Assembly: GCA_963749705.1 (NCBI GenBank) | Contig: CAVVNQ010000015.1 | Location: 192,001-256,000, forward strand | Origin: an uncultured Chloroflexia bacterium | GTDB taxonomy: Bacteria > Chloroflexota > Limnocylindria > Limnocylindrales > CSP1-4 | DNA: 64,000 nt | Direction: 5' to 3' | Part shown: piece by piece, positions 45,395 to 63,931 of the stretch | Layout: every line of letters begins with the position of its first letter | Position numbering within the stretch: position 1 is the stretch's first letter | Made by a program: the position numbers and the translations under genes | Notes under the pieces: model-generated | Told to the model about the DNA's origin: nothing | Database searches by the model: none | What the model saw: only the letters and a program-made list of their open reading frames with translations

Positions 45395-46588
45395 TTGCGG
45401 ACCAGCACCCGACTCGTCGCCCTGGTGGGCGCCGCGTCGTTCGTCTTTGCCGCTTGTGGCGGCAGCACCGCCACCACCGCGCCCCCCGCCAGCCAGGCAC
45501 CCGAGTCCATGGCACCCGAGTCCATGGCACCGGAGTCCATGGCACCGGAGTCCGTGGCCCCGACGTCGAACCTCAAGATCGGCGTTGTCACGGATATCGG
45601 GACGCTCAACGACAAGGGCTACAACGAGTACAGCTTCAAGGGCGCCGAGGACGGCGCCACCGAAATCGGCGCACCTGCGCCGCAGTCGACCGTGCCGAAG
45701 GACGCCTCCGAGTACGCGGCCGACATCCAGGCGTTCATCGACCAGAAGTACGACATCATCGTCACCGTCGGGTTCAACCTGACGAACGACACGGTCGCCG
45801 CGGCACACGCCAACCCCACGATCCACTTCGTGGGCGTGGACCAGTCCCCGGTGTGCGTCGATGAGACGGGCGCCCCGGATGCCACCTTCGCCTGCAAGGG
45901 CGACGCCAAGACCCTCGTCCCGAACTACACCTCGCTGTACTTCGCGGAGGACCAGGCGGGCTATCTCGCCGGGATCGTCGCGGCGTACGCGTCCAAGAAC
46001 GGCTCGGTCGGTGCCATCGGCGGCACCACGCTGTGCGCTCCGTGCGTGCGCTACATCCAGGGCTATGAGCTCGGCGCGAAGTCGGTCAAGTCCGACATCA
46101 AGGTGAGCACGGCCTACGTCACGAACGACTTCTCCGCGGCCGCCTTCAACGACCCGGCCGGCGGCAAGACGTTCGCCCAGACATTCATCAAGGCCAACGG
46201 CGTGGACGTCCTGTTCCAGGTCGCGGGCAAGACCGGCAACGGCGTCCTCGAAGCCGCCTGCCAGGCCGGCATCGACGGCATCGGCGTCGATGTCGACCAG
46301 TGGGTGTCCATCGGGGCGCCCAACAACTCGTGCATCATCACGAGCGCTGAGAAGCACGTCGAGTCGGCCGTGAAGCAGGCCATCGTCGGCATCGCCGCCG
46401 ACAACCTGGCCGCGGGCGACGTCCTGTTCAACGCCGCCAATGACGGCATCGGCGTGTCGCCGTTCCACGACGCCGCCTCGATGTTCGGTCCCGAGGTCCA
46501 GACGGCCCTCGATACCGCGCTCGCCGGCATGAAGGCGGGCACGCTCAAGACCTGCCCCGACACCGGCTGCGGCGTCTACACGCCCTAG
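45395..46588 (+). CDS. BMP (PnrA/NupN-like) nucleoside ABC transporter substrate-binding lipoprotein
   Basis: GAGGAGG RBS and TTG start, lipobox FAAC, DKGYN, GYLAGIVAA, GIGVDVDQ and TSAEK motifs. Confidence 0.9.
   Translation: MRTSTRLVALVGAASFVFAACGGSTATTAPPASQAPESMAPESMAPESMAPESVAPTSNLKIGVVTDIGTLNDKGYNEYSFKGAEDGATEIGAPAPQSTVPKDASEYAADIQAFIDQKYDIIVTVGFNLTNDTVAAAHANPTIHFVGVDQSPVCVDETGAPDATFACKGDAKTLVPNYTSLYFAEDQAGYLAGIVAAYASKNGSVGAIGGTTLCAPCVRYIQGYELGAKSVKSDIKVSTAYVTNDFSAAAFNDPAGGKTFAQTFIKANGVDVLFQVAGKTGNGVLEAACQAGIDGIGVDVDQWVSIGAPNNSCIITSAEKHVESAVKQAIVGIAADNLAAGDVLFNAANDGIGVSPFHDAASMFGPEVQTALDTALAGMKAGTLKTCPDTGCGVYTP
45497..45556 (+). repeat. 4 x 15-bp coding repeat (APESM) in the lipoprotein tether
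   Basis: GCACCSGAGTCCRTG four times. Confidence 0.9.
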
Positions 46589-46608
46589 CCTCCACCGGGT
46601 AAACGGTT

Positions 46609-46642
46609 CGGACGGGTCGGCTGCTTGCGGCCGACCCGTCCG
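46609..46642 (+). other. intercistronic stem-loop after the BMP gene
   Basis: CGGACGGGTCGGCTG-cttg-CGGCCGACCCGTCCG (one G-U pair). Confidence 0.7.
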
Positions 46643-46679
46643 CATAACCGCCCAGCGCGTACTGCCGGAGTCATCGCTC

Positions 46680-48257
46680 ATGGCCGACTCGACGGGAACG
46701 ATCGTCGCCCCGGCGCTCGAGATGCGAAGCATCACGAAGCGGTATCCGGGTGTGGTGGCCAACGACAGGATCAGCCTCGAGGTCCGCCCCGGGGAGATCC
46801 ATGCCCTGCTGGGCGAGAACGGCGCCGGCAAGACCACCCTCATGAACGTCCTGTACGGGCTGGCAACACCCGACGTGGGCGAGATCCTGCTCGATGGGTC
46901 GCCGGTGCAGATCGCCGGCCCCGCCGACGCGATCGCCCGTGGCATCAGCATGGTCCACCAGCACTTCATGCTGGTGCCGGTGCTCACGGTGGCCGAGAAC
47001 ATCCTCCTGGGGGAGGAGACGATGGCCAACCGGTTCTTCCTCGATCGCAGGGAGGCGCACAAGCGGATCATCGAGCTCGGCCGGCGGTTCGACTTCGAGA
47101 TCGACCCCGAGGTCAAGGTCGGCTCGCTGTCGGTGGGCTGGCAGCAGCGCGTGGAGATCCTCAAGGCGCTGTACCGGAACGCGCGGATCCTCGTCCTCGA
47201 CGAACCGACCGCGGTGCTCACGCCCCAGGAGACGGAGGAGATCTTCGCCGTCCTCCGGCGGCTGGCGGCCGAGGGCCACAGCATCGTATTCATCAGCCAC
47301 AAGCTGTACGAGGTCCTCGAGATCGCGGACCGGATCACCGTCATCCGGCGTGGCCGCGTGGTCGGCGAGCGCACGCCGGCCGAGACCGACGAGGACGACC
47401 TGGCCGAGCTGATGGTCGGTCGCGAGGTCCAGCTGACCGTCGACCGGGGCACGTCGCATCCGGGTGCCACGGTGCTCAACGTGACCGGGCTCGAGGCGAG
47501 CGACGACCGAGGTCACCCGATGGTCAGGGGCGTCGACCTCGAGGTTCGTGCCGGCGAGATCTTCGGCATCGCCGGCGTCGCCGGGAACGGCCAGGACGAG
47601 CTGGTCGAATCGATCATCGGCCTGCGCCATCCCACGACGGGCACGGTCACCCTCGACGGGCTGGACATCACCGCGTACACCCCCCGCCAGATGAACGAGG
47701 CACAGGTCGCGTACGTTCCCGCGGACCGCCACCGGTTCGGCCTGATCCTGTCGTTCCCGCTGGCCGACAACCTGGTCCTGACCAGCTACTACCGGCCGCC
47801 CTATGCCCGCGGGCTCATCCGCGACCGCGAGGCGATCGATCGGGACGCCGCCACGGCGGTCGAGAAGTTCGACATCCGGACGCCGTCCGCAACCGTCAAG
47901 GCGAGCACGCTGTCCGGTGGCAACCAGCAGAAGGCGGTCGTCGCCCGCGAGTTCGACCGGGACCTCAAGCTGCTGATCCTCGACCAGCCGACGCGCGGCC
48001 TCGACGTGGGCAGCATCGAGTTCATCCACCGCCAGGTGATCGCCAAGCGCGACGCGGGCACCGCGGTGCTGCTCGTCTCGGCGGAGCTCGACGAGGTCCT
48101 CGAGCTGTCCGACCGGATCGGCGTCATGTACGAGGGCCGGATCGTCGCCGTCCTCGACGGCCCCACCGCGGACAAGAACGCGGTCGGCCTGCTGATGGCG
48201 ACCGGTGGCGAGGAGCGCGACCCGGCTGCCCGCCCGGTGACGGGAGCCGTGGCATGA
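46680..48257 (+). CDS. nucleoside/sugar (CUT2) ABC transporter ATP-binding protein with two NBDs
   Basis: LGENGAGKTT, VHQHFML, LDEPTAVLTPQE, ISHKL, LSGGNQQK and QPTRGLDVG motifs. Confidence 0.93.
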   Translation: MADSTGTIVAPALEMRSITKRYPGVVANDRISLEVRPGEIHALLGENGAGKTTLMNVLYGLATPDVGEILLDGSPVQIAGPADAIARGISMVHQHFMLVPVLTVAENILLGEETMANRFFLDRREAHKRIIELGRRFDFEIDPEVKVGSLSVGWQQRVEILKALYRNARILVLDEPTAVLTPQETEEIFAVLRRLAAEGHSIVFISHKLYEVLEIADRITVIRRGRVVGERTPAETDEDDLAELMVGREVQLTVDRGTSHPGATVLNVTGLEASDDRGHPMVRGVDLEVRAGEIFGIAGVAGNGQDELVESIIGLRHPTTGTVTLDGLDITAYTPRQMNEAQVAYVPADRHRFGLILSFPLADNLVLTSYYRPPYARGLIRDREAIDRDAATAVEKFDIRTPSATVKASTLSGGNQQKAVVAREFDRDLKLLILDQPTRGLDVGSIEFIHRQVIAKRDAGTAVLLVSAELDEVLELSDRIGVMYEGRIVAVLDGPTADKNAVGLLMATGGEERDPAARPVTGAVA

Positions 48258-49408
48258 GCGAGGTTCGCCGGCCCGGCTGGCTGCGGCCGCGGAAGGTCTC
48301 GGCTGCGGGCATCTGGTCGATCGTCGCGGTCCCGGTCACGGTCATCGTCCTGTCGGTGCTGCTGGGCGCGGCGATCGTGCTCTTCTCGGAGCTGCTGGTC
48401 CCGGGCAAGGAGTTCGACTGGGGCCTGCCGCTGGTCGCCTATGGCGCGCTGATCGAGGGCGCGCTGGGCAACCCGGACGCGGTCGTCTCGACGCTCGTCA
48501 ACTCCACGCCGCTGCTGTTCGGCGGCCTCGCGGTCGGCTTCGGCTTCAAGGCGGGGCTGTTCAACATCGGCGCGCAGGGCCAGTTCCTGGTCGGCGCCCT
48601 GGGGGCCGTGATCGTGGGCGTCCAGCTGGCCGACGCGCCCGCGATCGTCGCGATCCCGGCCGCGGCCCTGGCGGGCTTCGTCGCGGGCGGCCTGTGGGGC
48701 TTCGTGCCGGGCTTCCTCAAGGCGGTCTCGGGCGCCCACGAGGTCGTCAGCACGATCATGATGAACTACATCGCGGTCCAGCTCCTGGCGGCGCTCGTGA
48801 GCGGTCCGCTCAAGGTGCCCAAGTCGCCGTCCCCGGTCACGTTCGACGTCGGCAACGCGGCGTTCCCGGTGATCCTGGGGCGCAACGGGCACCTCGGCAT
48901 CGTGCTCGCCCTGATCGCGGCGTTCTTCGTGTGGTGGCTGCTGTTCCGCACCACCTGGGGGTTCGAGGTCCGCGCCGTGGGCGCCAACCCTGACGCGTCG
49001 CGCTATGCCGGCATGCGACCCCGGCTGATCACAATCGCCACCATGACCTTCAGCGGGGCGCTGGCCGGGCTGGCCGGGACGAGCGTGCTGCTGGGCGTGA
49101 CCCACACCATGACGTCGAGCTTCGGCACGACGGTCGGCTTCGACTCGATCGCGGTCGCCCTGCTCGCGCGATCGCACCCGCTGGTCACCATCTTCGCGGC
49201 CCTCCTGTTCGGTGGCATGCGGGCGGGGGCCGGGCTGATGCAGATCCGGGCCCAGATCCCGGTCGAGCTGGTGGACGTGCTCCAGGCGGTGATCCTGCTG
49301 TTCCTGGTCGCGAGCCCCGTGCTCCGCTACGTGCTCCGGGCGCGGGGCCCGGGCCAGGGCGAGCCCATCGTCGCGACCGGTGGCCTGGCGCCCAAGGCGG
49401 CCGCCTGA
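48254..49408 (+). CDS. nucleoside ABC transporter permease
   Basis: GLFNIGAQGQ, HEVVSTIMMN, GFEVRAVGAN and GFDSIAVALL motifs. Confidence 0.92.
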   Translation: MSEVRRPGWLRPRKVSAAGIWSIVAVPVTVIVLSVLLGAAIVLFSELLVPGKEFDWGLPLVAYGALIEGALGNPDAVVSTLVNSTPLLFGGLAVGFGFKAGLFNIGAQGQFLVGALGAVIVGVQLADAPAIVAIPAAALAGFVAGGLWGFVPGFLKAVSGAHEVVSTIMMNYIAVQLLAALVSGPLKVPKSPSPVTFDVGNAAFPVILGRNGHLGIVLALIAAFFVWWLLFRTTWGFEVRAVGANPDASRYAGMRPRLITIATMTFSGALAGLAGTSVLLGVTHTMTSSFGTTVGFDSIAVALLARSHPLVTIFAALLFGGMRAGAGLMQIRAQIPVELVDVLQAVILLFLVASPVLRYVLRARGPGQGEPIVATGGLAPKAAA

Positions 49409-50493
49409 TGGACATCACGCAGCTGTTCGACGCGCTGTACGCCATCCCGTTGCTGGGGATCCTGTTCCAGGCGGTCGGCTTCCTGGTCGCGGTCATCCCA
49501 TCCAACGCGCCCAACATCATGAACCAGGCGACCCCGCTCGCCCTGGCCGCCCTGTGCGGCGTGCTGTGCGAGCGCTCGGGCGTGGTCAACATCGGCATCG
49601 AGGGCACGATGCTCGCGGCCGCGTTCACGGCATGGGTCGTCGGCGTTGCCGTCAACCCGATGTTCGGCAGCCCGGCGCCCGGCGAGGTGTTCGGCCTGAC
49701 CATCCCGCTCCTGATCTGCCTCCTCGCCGCGGTGCTGGTGGCGGTCGTGATCTCCGCGCTCCATGCGTGGCTCTCGATCTCGCTCCGCGCGGACCAGATC
49801 ATCAGCGGCACGATCATCAACATCGCGGCGTTCGGGGTGACCGGCTATCTCGACCAGCTGATCTCGCGATCCTCGCCGGCCGGTGCCGGCAGCTTCGCCG
49901 CGTTCAGGCCGCCGGCCGAGCTGATCCAGATCCCCGTGATCGGCTGGATCATCGACATGTTCCTCGCCCAGGGCCCGATCGCGATGTCCACGATCGTGAT
50001 CATGGTGGGCGCCCAGATCTGGCTGTTCCGGACGCGCTGGGGGCTCCGGACGCGCGCCGTCGGCGAGCACCCGCGCGCCGCGGAGACCGTCGGCATCGAC
50101 GTGATCCGGCTGCGCTACCGGAACGTGATGCTGGGCGGCGTGTTCGCCGGCCTCGGCGGCGCCTGGCTGAGCATCGAGGCCACCAACTCGTTCCAGATCG
50201 GGATGACCACCGGACGCGGCTTCATCGCGCTGGCCGCGATGATCATGGGTCGCTGGACGCCGATCGGGGCGTTCGGCTCGGCCCTCCTGTTCGCACTGTT
50301 CCTCCAGATCAGCCAGCTGATCAAGATCGCGCCCCCGACGGGCGACCTGGGGGTCGTGATGCGGTCGGTGCCCGCGCAGCTGTGGGATGCGCTCCCGTAC
50401 CTGCTCACGATCGTGATCCTGGCCGGCGTCGTCGGTCGGAGCGTCCCGCCGGCCGCCGACGGGCAGCCGTACGAGCGCGAAGCGGCGGCCTGA
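49408..50493 (+). CDS. nucleoside ABC transporter permease
   Basis: ERSGVVNIGIEG, GLRTRAVGEHP, GRGFIALAAMI, LPYLLT and PAADGQPY motifs. Confidence 0.92.
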   Translation: MDITQLFDALYAIPLLGILFQAVGFLVAVIPSNAPNIMNQATPLALAALCGVLCERSGVVNIGIEGTMLAAAFTAWVVGVAVNPMFGSPAPGEVFGLTIPLLICLLAAVLVAVVISALHAWLSISLRADQIISGTIINIAAFGVTGYLDQLISRSSPAGAGSFAAFRPPAELIQIPVIGWIIDMFLAQGPIAMSTIVIMVGAQIWLFRTRWGLRTRAVGEHPRAAETVGIDVIRLRYRNVMLGGVFAGLGGAWLSIEATNSFQIGMTTGRGFIALAAMIMGRWTPIGAFGSALLFALFLQISQLIKIAPPTGDLGVVMRSVPAQLWDALPYLLTIVILAGVVGRSVPPAADGQPYEREAAA

Positions 50494-50497
50494 GCCC

Positions 50498-51496
50498 GTG
50501 ACGCCGGGCGACGCCGAGCGGGCGGCCGCCCTCGCCGCGCTGCCGGGCCGGCCGCCGGGGGGCGAGCCGCGACCGGTGATCCTGGACTGCGACCCCGGAC
50601 ACGACGATGCGCTGGCGATCCTCCTGGCCTGCGCCTCGCCCGGGCTCGAGGTCCTGGGCGTCACGACCGTTGCCGGCAACTCGGGGCTCGCCAACACCAC
50701 GCGCAACGCGCTGCGGGTGCTGACGCTGCTCGACCGGACGGACATCCCGGTGGCCGCGGGTGCGGCCCGGCCGCTGGTCCAGGATCCGCTGATCCAGCCG
50801 GCGTTCCACGGTGATTCAGGGCTGGACGGCTCGGACCTGCCCGACGCCGCGATGGGCGCACGTCCCGAGGCCGCGGTCGAGCTGATGGCGTCGCTGGTCC
50901 GCGCGTCCCCGGCGCCGGTGACGCTCGTGCCCACCGGACCGCTGACCAACGTCGCGCTGTTCCTGCGCGCCTTCCCGTCGCTCCACGATCGGCTCGGCGC
51001 GATCTCGCTGATGGGCGGCTCGCTGGGCGCGGGCAACACCACGGCCTCGGCCGAGTTCAACATCTGGCAGGATCCGGAGGCCGCCGCGATCGTGTTCGGG
51101 GCGGGCGTCCCGATCCTGATGGCGGGCCTGGACGTGACCCACCAGGCGCTGGTGCTGCCGGAGGACGTTGCCCGGCTGGAGGCGCTGGGCACCCGGACCG
51201 GGCACGTGTTCGCGGACCTGATGCGGTTCTTCGCCATCCACCACCGCAACCGGTACGGCTGGCCCGGCCCGCCGATCCATGATGCGGTCGCGGTCGGGGT
51301 GCTGGTCGCCCCGTGGCTCGTCGAGCGCCGCCGGATGCGCGTCGACGTCGAGATCGGCGATGGGCTGACCCGGGGGCGAACGGTCGGGGACGAGGAGGGG
51401 ATCAGCGGCCGGCCGCCGAACGCGGAGGTTGGGATCCGGCTCGATCGGGAGGGGCTCATCGACCTCGTCGTCGACGCCGTCGCGCGCTTCCCCTAG
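50498..51496 (+). CDS. inosine/uridine-preferring nucleoside hydrolase
   Basis: DCDPGHDD Ca-binding motif, TTVAGN, HGDSGL, TGPLTN, AEFNIW and IHDAV motifs. Confidence 0.94.
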   Translation: MTPGDAERAAALAALPGRPPGGEPRPVILDCDPGHDDALAILLACASPGLEVLGVTTVAGNSGLANTTRNALRVLTLLDRTDIPVAAGAARPLVQDPLIQPAFHGDSGLDGSDLPDAAMGARPEAAVELMASLVRASPAPVTLVPTGPLTNVALFLRAFPSLHDRLGAISLMGGSLGAGNTTASAEFNIWQDPEAAAIVFGAGVPILMAGLDVTHQALVLPEDVARLEALGTRTGHVFADLMRFFAIHHRNRYGWPGPPIHDAVAVGVLVAPWLVERRRMRVDVEIGDGLTRGRTVGDEEGISGRPPNAEVGIRLDREGLIDLVVDAVARFP

Positions 51497-52846: not shown

Positions 52847-53834
52847 TCAGCTGGCGGGCGTGAGCCAGACCGGGTAGTCGGTCACGTTCTCCGGCGAGCC
52901 GTCCTTGGCCGAGTAGTCGAGCACCCGCAGGGTGCCCCACTGCGCCTTCGAGACCGAATAGCTCAGCTGCGCCGAGAACGTGCCCCAGCAGCCCGTGCCG
53001 CAGGTGGCCATCACCTGCTGGTCGACGAGCCGGGTACCGGCGGCGTCCATCAGCTGGACCCGGAACGTCGCCTCGAACACGTTGGCCAGACCGGTGACCG
53101 TGCCCGGGTTGCCGAGCGCGGCGCCCCAGGCGGGGCGGTCGACGAAGATCGCCGGCAGCTGGTCGTGATAGTCGGCGCGGCCGACCGGGTGGTCGAGGAT
53201 CAAGGCCCTCACCGCCGAAGATCGTGACCGGCTGTCCGTCGAGCTTGAACAGGACCCCGTCGACGGTCGAGAACTGGGTCAGCGTGTAGACGACCTGCGA
53301 CAGCCGCCCGAACATCGAGGCGCTGCCGCCGCCGGTCTCGTATTCGCGGGACAGGTCGATGGTGGCGACGCCGCCGGTGATCGACAGGCCGAGCAGCTGC
53401 GTGCCGGCCGGGATCGTCGTGACCAGCGCGGGGCTGGCCGCCTGCTCCCTGGCGTTGGGGCCGGCGAGCAGCTCGCGGATGGCGGCGGTCGCGACGGCCT
53501 GAGTCCTGGGGATCTCTCGCAGGACGGGCACCAGGTGCTCGTTCGCCAGGAAGTAGGCGCGGACGATGACCGTGGCCGTGGGCGCCGGTGTGGCGGTGGG
53601 CGCCGTCGTCGGGCCCGTGGACGGGGTCGTGGAACCGGTGGGCTGCGCCGTCGGCGTCGGCGAGGCCGTGTCCGGCGTGACGTCGGCGGTCGGGACCTCG
53701 ACCGACGGGTTGCTGGTGGCGGGTGGCGTGGCGGGCGTGCCCAGGGCGCCCGTCGCGGGCGAGCACGCCGCGGCGAGCAGCACGACGGCTGCGAGGACGG
53801 TGATCGATGTCAGCGAGCGGGTGGTGGCGATCAT
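52847..53834 (-). CDS. GerMN-domain lipoprotein with a C-terminal Ig-like (Gmad2-like) domain, one +1 frameshift near 53203
   Basis: Lipobox LAAAC, Thr/Pro linker, VRAYFL, ELLAGP, ATIDLS and QVVYTLTQF (GerMN). ANVFEATF...CGTGCWGTF follows in the next frame. Confidence 0.8.
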
Positions 53835-55297
53835 GGCTGGGACCTCGATGTGGGCTCCGATGCCCCACGAGCATCGCCCGCGCGCGTCACGCGCCCAGCA
53901 CCGGCGGGTAACGATCCGGTGACAGGCAGCGTCAACGAGAACACCATGCCGCCGCCGGGGCGCCGGCGCGCGGTCAGCGTTCCGCCGACGAGCGCGGCAT
54001 GCTCCCGGGCGATCGCCAGCCCGAGCCCGGAGCTGCCGCCGCGCCGCGACGGGTCGGCCTTGTAGAAGCGATCGAACAGATGGGGCATGGCATCGGATGC
54101 CACCCCGGGTCCACGGTCGGCGACCACGATCACCGCGCCGTCGCGGGTACCCGTGAGCGACACCTCCACCGGCGCGCCCGGCGCATGGTCCCGGGCGTTG
54201 TCGAGAAGGTTGCCCAGGATGCGGTCGAGCCGGCGCGGCTCGGATTCCACGACCACCGGGTCCCGCGGCAGCGACACCTCGGCCTCGGGCAGCCGGGCGG
54301 CGACGACGCCGGTCACGATCCGGCCGAGATCCACGGGTTCCAGCGCGGCCTGCTCGGCCTGCGCGTCGAAGCGCGAGACCTCCATCAGGTCGTCGACGAG
54401 CACCCGCAGCCGCCGGACGTCGGCAACGAGGAGCTCGGCGGCCCGTCGCGCGTCGGGCGTGAGGCGGTCGAGTCCCGTCTCGATCAGCGACGCCTCGGCG
54501 ACCAGGGCGGTCAGCGGTGTTCGCAGCTCGTGCGAGACGTCCGCGACGAAGTCCCGGTTCTGGCGCTGCGCCGCTTCCAGCCGGACGACGGTCGTCTCCA
54601 GCGAGTCGGCCATGCGATTGAACTCGGCCGCCCAGCGTCCGAACTCGTCCCGACCCTCCTCGGGCACCCGTGCCGAGAGGTCGCCCCGCGCGATCCGGCG
54701 GGCCGCCTCGCCGGCGGCGGCGACCGGCTGCAGGATCCGTCGCGCGATGACGCGGGCGGTGAGCAGCGCCACCAGCACCGCGATCAGCGCCGCGGCCGCA
54801 AGCCCGAGCCGGAGCTGGGCCAGCGCATCCTCGACCGGGCGGGCGGAGAACACGAAGTAGAGATCCGGCGGGCCGCCCACCCGGCCGCCCACCACGAGGG
54901 CCGGCCCACCCGACAGGTCCAGCCACGCGTAGCCCAGCTGTCCGTCGGCCACGATCTGGCGGAGCGAGGCCGGGATCCGGTCCGGGACGCCCTGGAGGGC
55001 AAGGCTCGACAGGTACGGGTTGCCGTCGCCGAAGTCCGCGATGACCTCGGAGTCGCCGCGCAGCCGGAACGCCGCCGGCAGGCTGCTGGCGCGGAAGCTG
55101 TCCGCGTCGGTCGGGCGCGGCTGTGCGTCCGGGAGCAGGACCGAGAGGTTGAAGTCCACCTGCTGGCGAGCGTCGGCGATCAGCCGGTCGCGCAGCGACG
55201 CATCGACGAACGCGTACGTTCCGATGCCGATCGCGGCGACGGTCACGGCGACGAGCGCCACCAGGGTCAGCGCGAGCCGGGTCCGGATGCCGCCCAT
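53831..55297 (-). CDS. HAMP-domain sensor histidine kinase (MtrB/CseC-like)
   Basis: Two TM helices, HAMP, H-box DVSHELRTPL, NLLDNA, DRGPG, FDRFYK and GLGLAI motifs. Confidence 0.93.
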   Translation of the reverse strand: MGGIRTRLALTLVALVAVTVAAIGIGTYAFVDASLRDRLIADARQQVDFNLSVLLPDAQPRPTDADSFRASSLPAAFRLRGDSEVIADFGDGNPYLSSLALQGVPDRIPASLRQIVADGQLGYAWLDLSGGPALVVGGRVGGPPDLYFVFSARPVEDALAQLRLGLAAAALIAVLVALLTARVIARRILQPVAAAGEAARRIARGDLSARVPEEGRDEFGRWAAEFNRMADSLETTVVRLEAAQRQNRDFVADVSHELRTPLTALVAEASLIETGLDRLTPDARRAAELLVADVRRLRVLVDDLMEVSRFDAQAEQAALEPVDLGRIVTGVVAARLPEAEVSLPRDPVVVESEPRRLDRILGNLLDNARDHAPGAPVEVSLTGTRDGAVIVVADRGPGVASDAMPHLFDRFYKADPSRRGGSSGLGLAIAREHAALVGGTLTARRRPGGGMVFSLTLPVTGSLPAGAGRVTRAGDARGASEPTSRSQP

Positions 55298-55325
55298 CTG
55301 CTGCTCGTGCCCGCCGCTCAGCGTC

Positions 55326-56021
55326 TCAGCCGGCCGGCCGGGCGGCCTTGTACCCGGCGCCGCGGACGGTGAGGATCAGGGCCGGCTCGGCCGGGTCCGC
55401 TTCGACCTTGGCCCGCAGCCGGCCGATCGCGACGTCCACCAGCCGCGAATCGCCGAGGTAGTCGTAGCCCCAGACGTGGTCCAGCAGGACGTCCCGCGTG
55501 AACACCTGGCCCGGCCGGCTCGCCAGGTCGGCCAGGAGGTCGAACTCGGTCCGCGTGAGCGGCACCTCATGGCCGTCGCGCTCCACCGTGCGCCCGGCGA
55601 GGTCGATCCTCAGCGGGCCCAGCTGGATGAGGCGCTCGACGGACGGGTCCTCGTCCCGCCCTCGCCGCCGCAGGGCCGCGCGCAGCCTGGCGACCAGCTC
55701 GGGCATCTCGAACGGCTTGCGGACGTAATCGTCCGCGCCGGATTCCAGGCCGACCACGACATCGATCGTGTCGGCGCGTGCGGTGAGCATGACGATCGGC
55801 GTGGTGGCCTCGCGGCGGATGGCCCGACACACCTCGAGGCCATCCATCCGCGGCAGCATCACGTCGAGCAGGACCAGGTCAAACGGCTCCGCGCGCCAGC
55901 GTTCGAGGCCCTCGGCGCCGTCGCCGGCCGTCGTCACGGTGAAGCCCGCCGCACGCAGCCCGAGCGCGGTCACCTCGCGGATCGACGGGTCGTCCTCGAC
56001 GAGCAGGATGTGCGCGTCCAC
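55326..56021 (-). CDS. OmpR-family response regulator (MtrA/CseB-like)
   Basis: LLVEDD, LLDVMLP, MLTAR, GADDYVRKPF, WGYDYLGDSRLVDV and TVRGAGYK motifs. Confidence 0.94.
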   Translation of the reverse strand: MDAHILLVEDDPSIREVTALGLRAAGFTVTTAGDGAEGLERWRAEPFDLVLLDVMLPRMDGLEVCRAIRREATTPIVMLTARADTIDVVVGLESGADDYVRKPFEMPELVARLRAALRRRGRDEDPSVERLIQLGPLRIDLAGRTVERDGHEVPLTRTEFDLLADLASRPGQVFTRDVLLDHVWGYDYLGDSRLVDVAIGRLRAKVEADPAEPALILTVRGAGYKAARPAG

Positions 56022-57286: not shown

Positions 57287-57510
57287 GGCAACCTCCCGGC
57301 GCCGCCCGGGTCCGTGGTCCGGTGATCACGGGCGGGCGACGATCGAGTGGCCATCCCGAGAGTAGGGGACGAGACCGCGGAACCCGCGTCGACGATGGTG
57401 GGGTCCCGCAATGCCCGCGGGGCGGTGCCCTTTGACGGGATGATGCGCAGCCGCACGTGAGAAGCCGCTGAGATGGCGCGGCAGCACGGACCGGGCACCG
57501 GGTGAGGTCG

Positions 57511-57532
57511 GCGTAGAGCCGGCATAGAGCGC
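57511..57532 (+). promoter_or_regulatory. putative SARP operator (direct repeats with 11-bp period), copy 1
   Basis: GCGTAGAGCCGGCATAGAGCGC, with TAGAGC at 57514 and 57525. It lies 83 nt upstream of the lipoprotein ATG and is 20/22 identical to copy 2. Confidence 0.7.
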
Positions 57533-57615
57533 GGATCGGGATCGTGCGCCGCGGGCTTCCACTACGGGCGCCGCGTCCAAGTGAGATAGGTCCGCGAAGC
57601 AGGAGCCGAGCTTCC

Positions 57616-58482
57616 ATGACGTTCCGATCCCGCATGCGTCGCACCTGGGCGATCGCCGTGACCATCCCGCTCGTCCTGTCTGCCGTTGCTGCCTGTTCCG
57701 GGTCGACGGCAGCCACGAGCGATGCAGCCAATCCGCCGAGTGCCACCCCGGCGGCAACGCCGGTCGCGACGGCGAGCCTGCCGGCGACGGCAAGCCCGCC
57801 GGCGTCGGCAGCGCCGTCCGAGGCGGCGTCCCCGCTGACCGTGACCTCCTCACTCGCGGACGGACCGCTCGCGCGCGCCGTCGAGTGGACTGCGCGCGTT
57901 TCCGGACCCACCGACGTGGCGATCGACCGTGTCGAATTCCTGCTCGACGGGAAGGTGGCCTGGACCGAGCACAACCCGCCGTACACGTTCAACGACGACG
58001 GCAACGTGCTCATGCCGTGGGCGCTCGAGCCTGGGACGCACCAGCTCGCGATCAACGTCGTCACGGCCTCGGGTGTCGCCACTTCGGCCCCGGTCACGGT
58101 GACCACGGACCGTCCGCCGGTGCCCGAGGCGCTTCTCGACCAGCGGTTCGTGCGGACCGTGCCGGCGAGCGCGACGGGACCCGTCGGCGACTGGCACCTG
58201 AAATTCGCGGCGGACGGCGTGATCACCTTGACCGACCCATGGGGCGGAGGTGTGACCGAGGGATTCCAGGCCGCTGCGGACGGGACAATGTCCCTGTACG
58301 GGCCGGCGAACTGGGTTGCGCCGGCCTCCCTCCGCGGCAGCATCTGCGACTACGCGGAGGGCGCGGTCGCAATGGGCTGGCAGGTCAAGGGCTCCGAGCT
58401 GACGCTGTCCTCCGGCGATCGCCCCGACCCGTGTCCGGATCGCGCATTCCTGTTCGTCGGCACCTGGACGGTCAGCCCCTGA
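57616..58482 (+). CDS. lipoprotein with an Ala/Pro/Ser/Thr linker, an Ig-like domain and a beta-rich C-terminal domain
   Basis: AGGAG RBS and lipobox VAAC. RVEFLLDG...PPYTF...LEPGTHQLAI resembles bacterial Ig-like domains. Confidence 0.75.
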   Translation: MTFRSRMRRTWAIAVTIPLVLSAVAACSGSTAATSDAANPPSATPAATPVATASLPATASPPASAAPSEAASPLTVTSSLADGPLARAVEWTARVSGPTDVAIDRVEFLLDGKVAWTEHNPPYTFNDDGNVLMPWALEPGTHQLAINVVTASGVATSAPVTVTTDRPPVPEALLDQRFVRTVPASATGPVGDWHLKFAADGVITLTDPWGGGVTEGFQAAADGTMSLYGPANWVAPASLRGSICDYAEGAVAMGWQVKGSELTLSSGDRPDPCPDRAFLFVGTWTVSP

Positions 58483-58489
58483 GAATCGC

Positions 58490-58518
58490 TTGACCGGGCG
58501 CCTCACGACGGCGACGAT
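58490..58518 (+). promoter_or_regulatory. putative promoter of the SARP-STAND-BMP gene
   Basis: TTGACC, 17-nt spacer, GACGAT, 39 nt before ATG 58558. Confidence 0.4.
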
Positions 58519-58557
58519 CCACCTTCGACCAACGGTCCTGACGCGCTGAGGGTTGCG

Positions 58558-61500
58558 ATGGACTTTCGCCTGCTCGGATCGCTCGAGGCCGTGGCCGGTG
58601 GGGTCACGGCCGACCTTGGGCCGCCCAAGCAGCGCGCCCTGCTCGCGGTCCTGTTGCTGCACGCCGGGGAGATCGTCTCCGTCGATCGGCTGATCGACGA
58701 CCTGTGGCCGGAGGCGCCGCCGCGCACGGCGGCGCACTCGATCCAGATCTACGTCTCGGAGCTGCGCAAGGCACTGTCGCGGCTCGCGCCCGGCGAGCTC
58801 ATCGTCACGCGCCAGCCGGGCTACCAGCTGCAGGCGCCCGACGATGCGATCGACACCCGCCGGTTCGAGCGGCTGGTCGAGGAGGGCCTGCAGCGCCTCC
58901 GGACGGGCGACCGGGTCGGGGGCATGGAGCGGCTTCGGGCGGCCCTGACCCTGTGGCGGGGGCCCGTCCTGTCCGACTTCGCCTACGAGGAGTTCGCCCA
59001 GCCGTACATCCGGCGGCTCACCGATCGGCATCTCGACGCGATCGAGGAGCTCGCCGCCGCGGAGCTCCTGGCCGGGCTCGTCGCCGACGCGCTTTCGCTC
59101 GTGGAGGCGGCCGTTCGCGAGGACCCGCTCCGCGAGCGGTCGCGCGAGATCCTGATGCTCGCGCTCTCCCGATCGGGTCGCCACGCCGAGGCCCTCCGGA
59201 CGTACCAGCGGCTCCGGGAGCTGCTCGACGACGAGCTCGGGCTGGATCCATCGCCGGCACTCCAGCAGCTCCAGCAGCGGATCCTGCTCCACGACCCGTC
59301 CCTCGCGCCGGCCTCGGAGGTTGCCGCGGGAACCGAGGAGCGGGCTCGAAATCCGTACAAGGGCCTGCGCGCGTTCACCGAGCAGGACGCCGCCGACTTC
59401 TTCGGCCGGGACGACCTGGCCGACCGCCTCGTCGACAGCCTGCGGGCCGGCCAACGCCTCGTCGCGCTCGTCGGCCCCTCGGGTTCGGGGAAGTCCAGCG
59501 TTCTCGCGGCCGGCCTGATCCCCAGGGTTCGCGCCGGCGCGATCGCGGGGTCTGTGCAGTGGGACGTCGTCCACGTCATCCCCGCGACCAACAACCTGGC
59601 TGAGATCGAAGCGACGGTGCGGACGCCGGCACCGCACCGACGGCTGCTCGTGCTCGACCAGTTCGAGGACCTGTTCGCCGTCGCCGACGAGCCGGCCAGA
59701 CGGCGCTTCCTCCAGACGATCTCGGCAGCGCTCCGTGACCCGGATGGAGCGGTCACGGTCGTGCTCGCCCTGCGGGCCGACTTCTACGACCGCCCGCTGC
59801 TCGATCCGGCGTTCGCCGAGATCTTCATCCCGGGCGTCATGAACGTCGTGCCCATGACGACCGACGAGCTCAAGGCGGCCGTCGCGGGCCCTGCGGAGCG
59901 TGCCGGGGTGAGCGTCGAGCCGGGGCTGCTCGCCGAGCTCGTCGCGGACACCGTGGCGCAGCCTGCGGCGCTGCCGCTGCTCCAGTTCGCCCTGACCGAG
60001 CTGTTCGACCGCGGCAACGGCGTGACGCTGACCCTGGCCGAGTACCGGGCGCTCGGCGCGCTCCACGGGATCCTGTCGCGCCGCGCCGAGGCCCTCTACG
60101 GTGGGCTCGACGCCGCCGGACGCCAGGTCGCCATGCAGGTGTTCCTGCGCCTCGTACGTCCCGGTCGGTCACCGATCGATTCGAGGCGGAGGCCATCGCT
60201 GTCGGAGCTCACAGACCTCGACGTCGACCCGGTCGCCCTGTCCGAGGTCCTCGACAGCTTCGGCCGCCACCGGCTCCTGGCCTTCGACCGCGACCCGGTC
60301 ACCGGCGACGCCACGGTCGAGGTGGCCCACGAGGCGCTGCTCCGCGAATGGGATCGCCTCGCCGGCTGGATCGATCGCCACCGCGCGGCTCTGCGGCGCC
60401 ACAGCTCGTTCGCCTCGGCCGCGGAGGAGTGGGAGGCCGCCGACCGCGACCCGGACTATCTCCTGACCGGGACACGCCTGGCGGAGTTCGAGACGACGAT
60501 CCGCGAGGGAGCGCTCCAGCTCACCGGGCGTGAGCGAGCGTTCCTCGAAGCGAGCCTGGAACGACGGCGCTCCGAGCAGGCGACTCAGACCGCGAGCGCC
60601 GCGGCCAGCCGCCGCCTGGAACGGCTTGCACGGATCCGCCTCGTGGGGCTCGGGATCGCGGTCGCGGCCGTGATCGTGCTCGGCGGGTACACCGCCCTGG
60701 GTCTCGCCACCCCGGTCCGGGCGCCCGTCTCGCTCATCTACAACGGGGACGGCGCGTGGTCGGTCGCGCTGATCGTCCAGGGCGGCTTCGATCGGGCGGT
60801 CACGGACTTCGGGCTGACCTCGCGCAAGATGTCCGTCATTTCCGGTCCGGCGGCGGACGACGCGATGCGGAGCGTGTCCCAGGGTGGCTCCGCGCTGGTG
60901 GTCGCGGCGGCCGTGGACGCCAACGTGGATTCCGTCGCGGCGGACTTCCCCGACACGCGCTACGCCGTGATCGACTTGCCCGCCGCGGAGCCCAACGTGA
61001 TCCACCTGGCGTTCGGTGACAACGAGAGCTCGTTCCTCGCCGGCGTGGTGGCGGCGAAGACGACGCGTACCGGCACGATCGGCTTCATCGGGGGCGCGGA
61101 CGGTCCCGTGATCTGGCCGTTCGCCGCGGGCTACGAGGCCGGGGCCCGGGCGGTGGACCCGTCGATCCGGATCCTGTCGGCGTACCTCGGCCGGGACGGC
61201 GACTACGAGGCCTACGTCGACCCGGCGGGCGCGTCCTCGGAGGCCATGTCGCAATTCCGCGGCGGCGCCGACGTCATCTTTGCGGCCGCGGGCGACTCGG
61301 GTGTCGGCGTGTTCAGTGCGGCGACCAGCGAATCGACAGCGCAGGGACGCCAGCTGTGGGCGATCGGCGTGGACTCGGACCAGTACGTAACCGTGGGCGA
61401 CAACCCGGTCAACGTCGGCTGGCGCGACTGGCAGCCGCACATCCTGACATCGGTCCTCAAGCGGATGGACACCGCGGTGTACGACCTGCTGGCGCAGTAC

Positions 61501-61719
61501 GCACGTGGCGATCTCGCGACCGGTACGCGGCGCCTCGGCCTCGCCGCCCATGGGGTCGACCTCTCGACCAGCGGCGGCTTCATCGATGGGCTTCGCGCCG
61601 AGATCGACACCTGGCGCGCGCGGATCGTCGCGGGGTCCGTCGCGGTGCCGTGCATCCCGGTCGGGCGCGAGGCCCAGGCTGGCGCGCTGGGCATCGACCC
61701 GACCGGGTGCGGCGGCTGA
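58558..61719 (+). CDS. SARP (wHTH+BTAD)-nSTAND NTPase-TM-BMP fusion, a putative transmembrane one-component regulator
   Basis: SARP/BTAD: MDFRLLGSLE, KQRALLA, YVSELRKAL, ALTLWRGPVL, DPLRER, ELGLDPS. nSTAND1-type: NPYKGL..F...DAADFFGR, GPSGSGKSS, VLDQFEDLF, LRADFY, LPLLQFAL, EVAHEALLREW. One TM helix at ~60634-60708. BMP: SFLAGVVAA, IGFIGG, GADVIFAAAG, AIGVDSDQ, ILTSVLK. Confidence 0.9.
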   Translation: MDFRLLGSLEAVAGGVTADLGPPKQRALLAVLLLHAGEIVSVDRLIDDLWPEAPPRTAAHSIQIYVSELRKALSRLAPGELIVTRQPGYQLQAPDDAIDTRRFERLVEEGLQRLRTGDRVGGMERLRAALTLWRGPVLSDFAYEEFAQPYIRRLTDRHLDAIEELAAAELLAGLVADALSLVEAAVREDPLRERSREILMLALSRSGRHAEALRTYQRLRELLDDELGLDPSPALQQLQQRILLHDPSLAPASEVAAGTEERARNPYKGLRAFTEQDAADFFGRDDLADRLVDSLRAGQRLVALVGPSGSGKSSVLAAGLIPRVRAGAIAGSVQWDVVHVIPATNNLAEIEATVRTPAPHRRLLVLDQFEDLFAVADEPARRRFLQTISAALRDPDGAVTVVLALRADFYDRPLLDPAFAEIFIPGVMNVVPMTTDELKAAVAGPAERAGVSVEPGLLAELVADTVAQPAALPLLQFALTELFDRGNGVTLTLAEYRALGALHGILSRRAEALYGGLDAAGRQVAMQVFLRLVRPGRSPIDSRRRPSLSELTDLDVDPVALSEVLDSFGRHRLLAFDRDPVTGDATVEVAHEALLREWDRLAGWIDRHRAALRRHSSFASAAEEWEAADRDPDYLLTGTRLAEFETTIREGALQLTGRERAFLEASLERRRSEQATQTASAAASRRLERLARIRLVGLGIAVAAVIVLGGYTALGLATPVRAPVSLIYNGDGAWSVALIVQGGFDRAVTDFGLTSRKMSVISGPAADDAMRSVSQGGSALVVAAAVDANVDSVAADFPDTRYAVIDLPAAEPNVIHLAFGDNESSFLAGVVAAKTTRTGTIGFIGGADGPVIWPFAAGYEAGARAVDPSIRILSAYLGRDGDYEAYVDPAGASSEAMSQFRGGADVIFAAAGDSGVGVFSAATSESTAQGRQLWAIGVDSDQYVTVGDNPVNVGWRDWQPHILTSVLKRMDTAVYDLLAQYARGDLATGTRRLGLAAHGVDLSTSGGFIDGLRAEIDTWRARIVAGSVAVPCIPVGREAQAGALGIDPTGCGG

Positions 61720-61748
61720 CCTCGGCCCCGCCGGCGGCAATGGCTGGG

Positions 61749-62195
61749 TCAGGGAATGACGGCGATCCCGACGTAGTGATCGTCGATCCCCTCCGCGTCG
61801 CACGAGTTGGTCGGGTAATACGTCCCGACGAGGGTCCCGGCACCGTGCATGCCCGCGAGGCTGCCGGTGCCGCCCGTGACCACCCAGCTGCCTTGGTCCT
61901 GCGGGTCGCAGGGGCGGACGCTCGCATGGATGTGGACATCGAAGGACCCGCCCGCGCAGGTGAACGTCTCGTGGACGTCGAACACGAGCGCCGCGCCGCG
62001 ACCAACGACCCGTGTGTCCTGCGCCAGGGTTCCGGCGTCGCAGTCCGGCAGCCCGGTGGCCGTGAACGTTGCCGGCCCTTCGAACCCGACGTGGGCGTCG
62101 ATCGTCACCGGCGTGGCAGCCGCGCCGCGGACCGGCGACACCGCCAGCGCGAGGAGCATCGAGGCCCCGATGAGAGAAGCAGATCGCCTGCGCAT
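61749..62195 (-). CDS. secreted small beta-rich protein with four Cys
   Basis: AGGAGG RBS, signal peptide MRRRSASLIGASMLLALAVSPVRGA and a GSWVVTGGTGSLAGMHGAG motif. Confidence 0.75.
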   Translation of the reverse strand: MRRRSASLIGASMLLALAVSPVRGAAATPVTIDAHVGFEGPATFTATGLPDCDAGTLAQDTRVVGRGAALVFDVHETFTCAGGSFDVHIHASVRPCDPQDQGSWVVTGGTGSLAGMHGAGTLVGTYYPTNSCDAEGIDDHYVGIAVIP

Positions 62196-62283
62196 CTGTG
62201 CGCCTCCTGATCGCGGGTCGTGTCGCTGGCGACACCACTCCGGGCGACCCGTTCCCGAGTGGCGCCCGCCCAGCGTCCACGCT

Positions 62284-62305
62284 GCGCTCTATCGCGGCTC
62301 TACGC
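62284..62305 (-). promoter_or_regulatory. putative SARP operator, copy 2
   Basis: The minus strand reads GCGTAGAGCCGCGATAGAGCGC, 88 nt upstream of ATG 62195, in the same orientation relative to its gene as copy 1. Confidence 0.7.
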
Positions 62306-62369
62306 GGCCGCTTCGCTTCCTCTGCGCAACGGTGGGACGTGGCGAGGGCCCGTGGCGAGGCCTGCCGGA

Positions 62370-63931
62370 TCAGCGGTTGGTGTGCTCCGTCGCGACCGTC
62401 CCGATGCGCTCGATCCCGGCGAACACGTCCGCGTAGTCGCGTACGGTTGTCGCGATCCCGGCCGGCTCGGGAGTGGGTGCAGCCCCGGCCACCGACGGGA
62501 CCGACGGCGCGGCCGCCGCCGCGACCTCGCTCGCCACCGTCGACACGACCCCGGCCGCGCGCCCGATCCAGCGCGGGAGGAATGCCGAGTTCGGGATCGT
62601 GCCGGCATCCATGCCGCTCGTCGTCCGGCGCAGCAGCGCCTCGATCTCGGGGCGGAGCCCGAGCGCCACGCCCCATACCAGGGCCTGGTCCGGGGTCTCG
62701 AGCCACTTGAGGCCAGTCGCCGTAACGGCGTCATCGAGCGTCGCCGACGTCGCGAACGTTGCCTTGAGCGTGCGGCGATACGCGGCCAGCTGGGCCTTCA
62801 TCACGGCGCCCTCGTGCGTGCGCGAGGCCATGAACCGGGCCAGGAGCCAGGTCGCGACGCCGCCGCCCGCGATGCCCAGGCCGACCCCGTAGACGAGCCC
62901 CTGGTCCGTGGCGCCCGCGGACGCCACCACCAGGCCGGCGACGACCTCGACCGCCGCCAGCCCCTCCCACTTCCAGCGGGCGATGAACGAGAGTCCCTTG
63001 ATCCAGCCCTTGCGGCGGGCGTAGTTCTCGACGAACGTCGCGAACCCGAGCGGCGGATGGAACCGCAGCGCGCGATCGCCGGGGATGTACGGCCCGGTCG
63101 CCCCGTCGGAGCCGGAACCGGTCGCAGACGCGGGGGCACCAGCAACGCGGTGCTTGCCCAGCCACGTGGTGAGCTCCGCCATCTCCTGGGCGGACGGGGC
63201 ATGCCCGGTGACGTCCTCGACGTGCCTGGCGAACGCCTCGGGATCCGCCGTCACCGCGTCGGGGTTGGCGAGCACCTCGCGCATGAGCGCCATCATCGGC
63301 GCCTGCCTCGCCTGGGAGGTGCGCAGCGATTCCGGGACCGGCTTGCCCGCCCGGGTGAGCGCCCCGATGAGCGACGCCTGGAGATCGGGTGTCGGTCCCG
63401 AGGTCATCCCCTCGACGAGGTCGCCGGGTGCGATGCCCTCAGGGCCCTTGGCCAGCGCGGCCGCGATGAACCCCGAGAACTCGGACATGGCAACCACGGC
63501 TTCCATGGCCCGGGCGTCGCCGGCGTCGTCGGCGACGTCGATCGCGGCATACGTCTTGAGGTTGGCGAGCAGCCAGGCCTCACCCTCGCCGACGGGCCGG
63601 CGACGGTTGAGCTGGATGCGGGGAGCATCCGTGTGCGTGCCGTGGATCTCGATCCCGACCCGGTGGGCGCCCCGCGCGTCGGGCGTCTCGTCGACGGAAC
63701 GCGATCTCGTCGCGGCTGGCGAGGTCGAACAGGGCGGCCATGAACGCGGTCGTCGCCGGTCCGCCGTCCACGATCGTCGCGGTTGCGGCCGTCATCCCCT
63801 CCGGCGGCGCGGGCAGGAGGATCGAGGCGATCATCGAGATACGAGGGGTCGCGGCCGGTCGCCCGCCAGCGCACCAGGACCCAACCCACCACGACCGCGA
63901 AGGCCACCAGCCCACCGACGATCGCCTGCAT
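62370..63931 (-). CDS. DUF2207-like membrane protein, broken by two +1 frameshifts (~63829 and ~63696)
   Basis: GGGAGG RBS then MQAIVGG, TM, WRATGRDP. Next frame: PPEGMTAA...ALFDLASR. Third frame: two TMs, RTHEGA...LAAYRRTL and ALVWGVALGL. Confidence 0.6.

Follow-up and report, generated by a model that had tools for sequence, protein, structure and literature searches.

In a 64,000-nucleotide (nt) stretch of DNA from an uncultured Chloroflexia bacterium (contig CAVVNQ010000015.1, positions 192,001 to 256,000 of the forward strand; the whole stretch is called the window below), we analyzed the gene P0001 (58558..61719, + strand). Its product joins a SARP DNA-binding head, an nSTAND1 NTPase, a predicted transmembrane helix, and a BMP-type ligand-binding domain in one chain of 1053 amino acids (aa). 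We propose that P0001 is probably an autoregulated, kinase-free, membrane-spanning, ligand-gated activator. A kinase-free, membrane-spanning one-component activator had already been suggested in an earlier note made from these letters alone; the architecture, a helix with a positive-inside flank, five of six ligand-pocket residues, and a DNA box all fit that suggestion and, as far as sequence can, support it. The architecture, its conservation among relatives, the geometry and exclusive location of the box, and the exported products encoded behind it were established in silico.

P0001 begins with ATG and has no internal stop, and its GC content at codon positions 1/2/3 (0.76/0.50/0.91) is coding-like against the 72% GC of the DNA, which bears out the single uninterrupted 1053-aa open reading frame (ORF) of the earlier note. 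Pfam matched each of the four domains that the note had put forward for checking (Trans_reg_C, BTAD, nSTAND1, and Bmp). The SARP head (58624..59286, + strand) consists of an OmpR-type winged helix-turn-helix (wHTH; Trans_reg_C, residues 23–91, E = 4.6e-11, 43.1 bits against a cut-off of 26.2) and then BTAD (residues 98–243, E = 1.4e-39, 136.2 bits against a cut-off of 22.1), the architecture by which a SARP is defined. The nSTAND1 module follows (PF20703, 59353..60456, + strand, residues 266–633, E = 2.9e-100, 337 bits); the match spans profile positions 1–379 of 379 and includes both Walker A and Walker B, as expected of an nSTAND1 protein. The order of wHTH, BTAD, and STAND NTPase is thus the one claimed earlier, and the motifs lie where they had been placed: Walker A, GPSGSGKSS, at G306–S314 (59473-59499); VLDQFE at residues 365–370, with the Walker B DQFE at 367–370; and EVAHEALL at residues 588–595. 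Beyond the HEALL motif, a helical linker (60457..60639, + strand; called from the sequence and the spacing in relatives) ends in the Arg-rich RRLERLARIR. It leads to the predicted transmembrane helix L695–A717 (60640..60708, + strand; called from hydropathy), after which comes a BMP/PnrA-type (periplasmic binding protein type I) domain, predicted to lie outside the membrane (60709..61716, + strand; from Pfam, profile matches, and the Cys/helix comparison described below). Pfam places Bmp (PF02608) at residues 789–1017 (profile positions 74–284 of 301, E = 6.2e-36, 124.4 bits against a cut-off of 24.1).

Across 38 relatives, the nSTAND1 residues G306, S308, G309, G311, K312, S313, S314, D367, F369, and E370 are invariant, and so is the recognition-helix region of the wHTH, P55–R70. 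The NCBIfam model for AfsR (NF053617) matched residues 2–313 only, at 174.6 bits against a cut-off of 1430; confined to the SARP head and far under the cut-off, this match makes P0001 SARP-like and not an AfsR orthologue. Neither Pfam nor NCBIfam found real TPR repeats after the NTPase.

The SARP-nSTAND1-helix-Bmp fusion is real and not an assembly artefact. BTAD, nSTAND1, and Bmp occur together in one protein in 118 of the 120 best database matches (53–93% identity, ~1040–1110 aa), and a search with the ectodomain only added ~30 further relatives. Relatives are encoded in 587 stretches of species-representative genomes. We kept 79 loci as the basis of the neighbor and box comparisons, and a Bmp part is present in 49 of these, all from metagenome-assembled genomes; by record title, 16 belong to Chloroflexota/Chloroflexia/Limnocylindria, 32 to Actinomycetota (mostly Acidimicrobiia), and one to Acidobacteria. 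Short soil-metagenome contigs, 95–99% alike, span 60616-60873, the junction between helix and Bmp, with no insertion or deletion; of the 16 places at which they vary, 14 fall on third codon positions. At this junction they show no frameshift, one of the outcomes that the earlier note had named as refuting its proposal. Four DNA sequencing runs matched the locus, in small shares and from a single soil-metagenome study, with parts of 60300-61300 uncovered; no RNA run carrying the locus was found among the sequencing runs listed. No other contiguous full-length match was listed in 200 further genomes of the phylum, a null result that says little since only three candidates per genome were scored.

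The BMP domain appears, by sequence profile, to be complete and two-lobed, as had been claimed. A profile built from 15 ectodomains, which covers the first 73 Bmp positions left unmatched by Pfam, matched Treponema pallidum TmpC/PnrA (chain 19–314 of 318, E = 8.5e-58) and Borrelia burgdorferi BmpA (chain 14–319 of 328, E = 7.2e-47) nearly end to end. It also matched pneumococcal PnrA (E about 5e-57), BmpD (E = 2.2e-43), and the structure 2hqb, 'Transcriptional activator of comK gene' or Med (E = 4.8e-16); the single P0001 sequence matched PnrA at 5e-37. According to PMC13325309, the pocket residues conserved across solved BMP proteins are BmpA Phe27, Phe151, Phe176, Val224, Asp225, and Lys242. 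Mapping onto BmpA through the TmpC alignment and residue spacing, we found five of these six kept in P0001, as F855, Y886, V938, D939, and K968 (equivalent to Phe151, Phe176, Val224, Asp225, and Lys242, respectively). Among the 38 relatives, position 855 is F in 33, 886 is F in 30 and Y in six, 938 is V in 32, 939 is D in 36, and 968 is K in 33. The N-lobe loop that holds Phe27 is replaced, with W734 one position off: the motif TDIGTLNDKGYN of the window's own BMP lipoprotein reads YNGDGAWSV in P0001, so the N-terminal ligand motif is indeed missing, as first observed in the earlier note. The fold and most of the pocket therefore seem to be under selection, while the base-reading part differs. 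The domain has neither signal peptide nor lipobox, being internal to a 1053-aa protein, and transporter genes are not conserved beside relatives.

P0001 has a single strong hydropathy peak (2.26 for a Kyte-Doolittle 19-mer, residues ~690–720), which agrees with the one transmembrane helix noted before. We placed the helix at L695–A717, a 23-residue apolar stretch with RRLERLARIR just before it; by hand count, the net charge is +4 over the 15 residues before and 0 over the 15 after. In Bmp-type relatives, the net charge ranges from +2 to +7 ahead of the helix and from −1 to +2 behind it. Across relatives in general, ~100–108 residues separate the HEALL motif from the helix. Of 43 related ORFs with an identified HEALL motif, 37 have a helix of Kyte-Doolittle value at least 1.9, among them 17 of 17 non-Bmp ORFs, only five of which have a Pfam-confirmed C-terminal domain.

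The tail of the BMP domain carries a Cys pair, C1032 and C1051 (VPC...C), kept in 36 of 38 relatives. We compared its presence with that of the helix in 132 SARP-headed Bmp proteins, defining a helix by a self-chosen threshold (Kyte-Doolittle 19-mer at least 1.9) and dropping 19 proteins for which the motif anchor failed. At least two tail Cys were present in 107 of 118 helix-bearing proteins and in six of 14 helix-less ones, leaving 11 and eight, respectively, with fewer than two; since the compared sequences are kin, a Fisher value on these counts is not a probability. SARP-kinase-Bmp proteins (P0175, P0177, P0182, and P0186) lack both helix and tail Cys in four of four cases. The pair is also mostly absent from the other helix-less forms, namely the clade of P0104, P0107, P0111, P0113–P0115, and L045; L021, L035, and L037 of Acidimicrobiia; and P0172. 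This association supports, and does not prove, an oxidizing, outside location of the Bmp domain in helix-bearing forms. The N-terminal half should be cytoplasmic, given its DNA binding and NTPase and its lack of a signal peptide. From hydropathy, charge, and the Cys pair, we predict an N-in, C-out topology. In two cluster representatives, P0038 and P0053, the helix region is an Arg-rich stretch that resembles an out-of-frame reading, and both proteins retain the Cys pair; either a sequencing error or recent decay could explain this.

The putative DNA target came to light as a direct repeat upstream of five of six homologues of P0196, a neighboring gene, that lie beside regulators. In the window, box 1 (57514..57531, + strand) reads TAGAGCC ggca TAGAGCG, two heptamers 11 nt apart, and contains an exact TAGAGN6TAGAG match (57514-57529); a −10-like hexamer read from the sequence, GATCGT (57540..57545, + strand), lies 8 nt past its second heptamer. 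Box 2 (62285..62302, − strand; pattern match 62287-62302) reads TAGAGCC gcga TAGAGCG and lies ~90–107 nt before the start of P0196. These are the two sites for TAGAGN6TAGAG in the window, even with one mismatch allowed, and TAGAGN6TAGAR occurs exactly twice in the 3.6-Mb genome of this organism, both sites flanking P0001 in the right orientation. Five other whole genomes have two exact matches each; both flank the orthologue in four genomes and one does in the fifth (9 of 10 matches). Of 48 Bmp-type loci, 29 carry an exact box on the gene strand no more than 1300 nt upstream, at −88 to −110 in 17 of them. In nine of the 48, a box lies within 700 nt past the stop, eight times at 10–64 nt and once, in L025, at 687 nt. 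Only four other matches remain in these 48 loci, likewise at the flanks of the regulator gene or ahead of P0196 homologues. The box is nearly absent from the loci of the branches that carry SBP_bac_1 or WD40 in place of Bmp, and the invariant recognition-helix region is in line with one conserved box.

A consensus of 44 sites reads C-R-TAGAGCG-N4-TAGAGC-G followed, after 8 nt, by nAnnnT, with A at +27 in 33 sites and T at +31 in 34. This geometry agrees with the SARP promoter rule given in PMC10936776, in which direct repeats lie 11 or 22 bp apart and the 3' repeat is 8 bp from the −10 element. Closer to the gene, we found by eye and regular expression a sigma-70-like promoter candidate, TTGACC-17 nt-GACGAT (58490..58518, + strand), 40 nt before the regulator ATG; a TTGAC element 41–50 nt past the box recurs in 11 of 17 box-proximal loci (in the form TTGACC-17-nAnnAT). 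We read it as a candidate basal promoter beneath an inducible one. A consensus scan of 57300-62450 returned no promoter and no terminator at the thresholds used. In Acidimicrobiia we noted further TAGAG(G/A) copies ~20 nt past the box, up to four repeats in all (L020 3410-3460, L021 9464-9515, L057 9459-9510, L031 392-470, and L051 5080-5150), which suggests possible higher-order binding.

Two genes stand behind the boxes of the window. P0198 (57616..58482, + strand) encodes, as read from its translation, a lipoprotein with the lipobox LSAVAAC, and its GC content at third codon positions is 0.83. It follows box 1 and precedes P0001, with which it shares strand and frame, ending 75 nt short of it. 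Its longest ORF begins at 57544, within the −10-like element, so we infer a later start, the ATG of MTFRSRMRRTW. P0196 (61749..62195, − strand), read from its translation, encodes a small secreted protein of 148 aa with four Cys; it is convergent with the regulator and a likely target. Homologues of P0196 lie beside the regulator in six other loci and have the box upstream in L008, L013, L014, and L025, as P0196 does here. Directly upstream of P0196 on the same strand, 62370-63506 encodes a predicted 378-aa membrane protein, P0197, and box 2 falls in the 174-nt gap between the two genes. Family matches are weak for all three products (P0196, DUF3224, E = 0.12; P0197, DUF2207_C, E = 0.0017; P0198, Big_7, E = 4.7e-4), and none of them had a match in PADLOC.

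Among relatives, the box-linked ORFs belong to different families, and the products behind ~19 of 23 box sites have a signal peptide, a lipobox, or a membrane anchor, as judged by eye from their N-termini; the genes behind the box in L018, L030u, L031u, and L051u are unclear, mis-called, or unconvincing. Some products are lipoproteins (P0198 in the window, and those of L005, L007, L010, L012, and L015), and some belong to the P0196 family. Others are small membrane-anchored proteins with short aromatic repeats (AWSxRL, GYPLHGGLAGPS, and AHWxxVVxYY) that belong to no nameable family. Genes of the aromatic-repeat type are at L006 13405-13746 and L048 13347-13757; at L023 13321-13866, L045 13331-13693, L049 7600-7905, and L053 13356-13667; and at L020 3535-3933, L021 9589-9981, and L057 9736-9981. 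Because the box-linked products are mostly exported, the regulon looks local and envelope-directed, apparently with positive autoregulation.

From these observations we infer the following course of topology, ligand, gating, signal passage across the membrane, nucleoside triphosphate (NTP) dependence, and oligomerization. The SARP head and nSTAND1 would be cytoplasmic and helix L695–A717 would span the membrane, so that the BMP Venus-flytrap domain (~719–1053), probably stapled by a C1032–C1051 disulfide, would face outward. A small molecule would be caught between the two lobes of the ectodomain. It is likely to be nucleoside-like or ribose-bearing, since the C-lobe contacts to ribose and base are kept and the N-lobe loop is replaced. 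Its capture would alter the packing of the ectodomain, and the change would reach the STAND module by way of the single helix and the helical linker; in its NTP-bound form, this module would self-associate. Self-association would set two SARP heads side by side on TAGAGCG-N4-TAGAGCG. Two SARP heads on two heptamers are required in AfsR, and this need gives a natural role to a module from a self-associating, NTP-dependent family. The repeat, 8 nt upstream of the −10-like hexamer, would replace a −35 element, and RNA polymerase would be recruited. One arm of the regulon would be P0198 and the regulator itself, giving positive feedback over the basal TTGACC promoter; the other would be the convergent gene for the small secreted protein P0196.

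Several observations weigh against this model. A reversed-pattern control is as frequent as the box or more so (four matches versus two in the genome of this organism, and two to seven versus two in the others); hence the signal lies in location, not in count. An exact upstream box is lacking in 19 of the 48 loci, some of them cut by contig ends and most of them distant Acidimicrobiia. The −10-like element of box 2, GACGCT, has a spacing of 7 nt and not 8. That P0001 binds the box was deduced from their co-location only. For AfsR, ATP left the oligomeric state unchanged in vitro, as stated in PMC10936776, so STAND-driven oligomerization is no given. The N-lobe base-recognition loop is missing from P0001 and differs between subclades, and a ligand could for that reason be absent. 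The helix call is soft, being a matter of hydropathy with a self-chosen threshold, and the Cys-helix link is imperfect, with 11 helix-bearing proteins lacking the pair and six helix-less ones having it. Furthermore, some relatives have no helix; evidently their Bmp domain is able to function in the cytoplasm, and outside sensing is thus no fixed property of the family.

We considered four other explanations, two of which concern the helix. The protein might be tethered and released: the helix would hold the SARP-STAND part off until a signal at the ectodomain triggered cleavage within the membrane or close to it, and a soluble fragment would then activate the box promoters, with STAND acting after release as in soluble AfsR. 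Helix-less, soluble relatives with the same head and Bmp show that the head can act when soluble, and the linker from HEALL to the helix is long (~100 residues). On the other hand, neighbor clustering over the 79 loci found no conserved gene for a protease or other enzyme beside the regulator, no cleavage motif was identified, and STAND-less SARP-helix-Bmp proteins (P0156 and P0164) resemble regulators of the ToxR type, known to be active in their anchored form. We regard release as unlikely, if the most plausible of the four. The helix might instead be buried or peripheral, with the whole protein in the cytoplasm, sensing an internal metabolite. That helix-less relatives exist speaks for this idea, as do WD40-ended relatives, which have positive charges on both sides of the helix (+4/+4 in L059 and +5/+4 in L062) and a domain that is classically intracellular. 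It fits poorly, however, with a hydropathy of 2.26 over 19 residues, an apolar stretch of 23 residues, and charges of +4 before and 0 after, with a Cys pair that tracks the helix, and with paralogues that carry SBP_bac_1, extracytoplasmic in its known role, after the same helix. A wholly cytoplasmic P0001 therefore strikes us as very improbable.

The other two explanations concern function. The nSTAND1 family was first delimited among predicted counter-invader systems and is named in conflict-system surveys (PMC8195603 and, for targets of diversity-generating retroelements, 10.1101/2023.09.22.558884), and transmembrane helices followed by an extracellular PBP domain are mentioned for a variable position of one conflict system (PMC7159879). 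The gene is also patchy within the family, with none listed in the 200 phylum genomes at three scored candidates each. P0001 could then sense an invader-derived molecule and use its SARP head as the effector. Yet Pfam found no TIR, caspase, nuclease, or adaptor domain in P0001, its match in PADLOC is limited to a 20-residue P-loop stretch (E = 3.7e-4), the neighbors are not defense genes, and the output is a dedicated promoter box that drives exported proteins and the regulator. We give an immune role little credence. The last explanation is that the tethered BMP domain docks on a BMP-type ATP-binding cassette (ABC) importer, such as that at 45215-50493, and reports its flux. BMP domains normally dock on such permeases, as is established for the family, and an importer of this kind and a nucleoside hydrolase lie 8–13 kb upstream in the window. 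Nevertheless, only L062 of the 79 loci has a strong ATPase match (53% identity) and a nucleoside hydrolase, and its regulator is of the WD40 type; the permease query matched nothing in any of the 79 loci by tblastn; and no box lies near the transporter genes with one mismatch allowed. Such coupling seems to us most improbable. Ligand-gated activation by an anchored P0001 remains our preferred reading.

P0001 shares with AfsR and the other large SARPs of Streptomyces an N-terminal OmpR-type wHTH and BTAD followed by a STAND-class NTPase, and its box shares with their promoters, as described in PMC10936776, repeats 11 bp apart and a 3' repeat 8 bp from the −10 element. AfsR, a soluble protein under modulation by Ser/Thr kinases, combines an NB-ARC-like NOD with a TPR sensor, whereas P0001 joins an nSTAND1 module to a transmembrane helix and a BMP domain. 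ToxR and CadC act while membrane-anchored and without a kinase. The features of their type, a cytoplasmic N-terminal wHTH, a single helix, an outside C-terminal sensor, and no kinase, are predicted in P0001 from hydropathy, charge, and the Cys pair. Unlike them, P0001 has BTAD and a 370-residue NTPase switch between wHTH and helix, and its sensor is a transporter-type binding fold. The terms BTAD, SARP, and substrate-binding have no occurrence in the main text of a survey of ToxR/CadC-type regulators (PMC10269533).

The ectodomain has, by sequence profile, nearly end to end the fold of the lipoproteins PnrA/TmpC, BmpA, and BmpD, and keeps the C-lobe aromatics, the Asp of GVD, and the pocket Lys of this family. 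It differs in having no lipobox, being anchored by the regulator's own helix instead, in having relatives without adjacent ABC genes, and in the replacement of the D...DDKSFN-type loop of the N-lobe. Med of Bacillus, an activator of comK, is likewise a BMP-fold protein that serves gene regulation and not uptake, but it is a free lipoprotein, lacks a DNA-binding part, and acts on comK indirectly. Conflict-system nSTAND1 proteins have the same NTPase family and a variable C-terminal sensor (WD40 and others) and differ in their death or effector domains and adaptors, where P0001 has an activator head with a dedicated box. Receptor Ser/Thr kinases and BvgS-type kinases resemble P0001 in their outside solute-binding-type fold, one helix, and cytoplasmic output; P0001 has no kinase. 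Among other NTPases, those of the KAP family have membrane helices.

The helix and the predicted outside sensor that the earlier note read in P0001 are not peculiar to it; they belong to the whole SARP-nSTAND1 subfamily and occur with SBP_bac_1 and WD40 ends as well. In the same genome, L001 (C16:42500-49500) encodes at 1094-5014 a 1306-aa SARP-nSTAND1 paralogue with a C-terminal SBP_bac_1, suggesting a second outside-sensing STAND regulator. L002 (C15:106500-114500) encodes a Pkinase-nSTAND1-SBP_bac_1 ORF (2326-6207, 1293 aa), and a separate SARP ORF (1464-2438, 324 aa) overlaps its start. In L061 and L067, SARP-Pkinase-nSTAND1-SBP_bac_1 is fused as one protein, and in L002 the parts could be truly split, or an assembly frameshift could separate them. 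L003 and L004, also of this genome, encode soluble proteins of the classical SARP-NB-ARC and SARP-TPR kinds. Upstream of L001, L002, or L003, no 6-mer was found to repeat exactly at 11 or 22 nt. By eye only, we noted TAAAGGC-ggcc-TTAAGTC, 8 nt, and CAGGCT ~60–100 nt before position 1464 of L002, which resembles a SARP-type box in which this paralogue would have a heptamer of its own.

Related loci also encode SARP-Pkinase-nSTAND1-SBP_bac_1 and SARP(-Pkinase)-nSTAND1-WD40 proteins. The Bmp module occurs elsewhere as SARP-helix-Bmp without STAND, in P0156 and P0164, and as SARP-Pkinase-Bmp of ~862 aa without helix. The nearest non-regulator relatives of the ectodomain are tandem Bmp-Bmp lipoproteins of ~688 aa (among P0121–P0145, 39–44% identity), which may hint at an ancestral transporter partner and ligand.

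When neighbors were clustered de novo over the 79 loci, no operon partner emerged as conserved. Antisense shadow ORFs within the regulator gene made up the top 'clusters', and the largest real ones are a ~200-aa protein without Pfam match (eight loci), a sigma-70 region-4 protein (seven loci), and the P0196 family. A HAMP histidine kinase and an OmpR-type response regulator (53831-56021, − strand) lie 2.5 kb upstream of P0001, and this pair is not conserved beside relatives. Further upstream, 45215-51496 encodes a BMP-type ABC importer (lipoprotein, ATPase, and permease) and then an inosine-uridine nucleoside hydrolase, a nucleoside salvage operon. We rejected a link of the regulator to this transporter and hydrolase, which are not conserved beside relatives and have no box.

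Annotation pipelines already label the architecture, under the names 'BTAD domain-containing putative transcriptional regulator', 'BMP family ABC transporter substrate-binding protein', and, at JGI, 'lipoprotein Med / SARP'; such labels come from JGI and NCBI naming. Literature searches of main texts, with supplements and figures outside their scope, found no paper that describes or characterizes SARP-nSTAND1-helix-Bmp, so the prior functional characterization that would have undone the earlier note's claim did not come to light within that scope. A term search of the available parts of PMC8195603, 10.1101/2023.09.22.558884, PMC10269533, and PMC7159879 found no mention of it either. With respect to the papers searched, the combination of a STAND switch, an outside binding-protein sensor, a SARP head, and a private box is new; the parts, and the logic of an anchored one-component regulator, are known.

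STAND/NLR-type switches have been seen as intracellular sensors, and SARPs as soluble activators of antibiotic clusters. Here, a single polypeptide, which occurs in many uncultured Chloroflexota and Actinomycetota of soil, appears to couple both STAND and SARP to a transporter-type receptor on the outside. The box offers a defined DNA target and a minimal regulon that can be tested without culturing the organism, helix-less, STAND-less, and kinase-bearing forms provide natural comparisons, and a possible use is a compact ligand-to-transcription biosensor chassis with swappable ectodomains. More tentatively than for P0001 itself, and with the odds somewhat against it, we suggest that soil Terrabacteria may have a general class of membrane-spanning STAND receptors, with interchangeable sensors (BMP, SBP_bac_1, or WD40) and heads (SARP, Ser/Thr kinase, or both) on one helix and an nSTAND1 switch, in which each receptor of the BMP branch would govern its own synthesis and a private regulon of exported proteins, defined by the box. 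If true, this class would be a third route of transmembrane signaling beside two-component systems and receptor kinases, and a bacterial counterpart of a surface-receptor/NLR hybrid.

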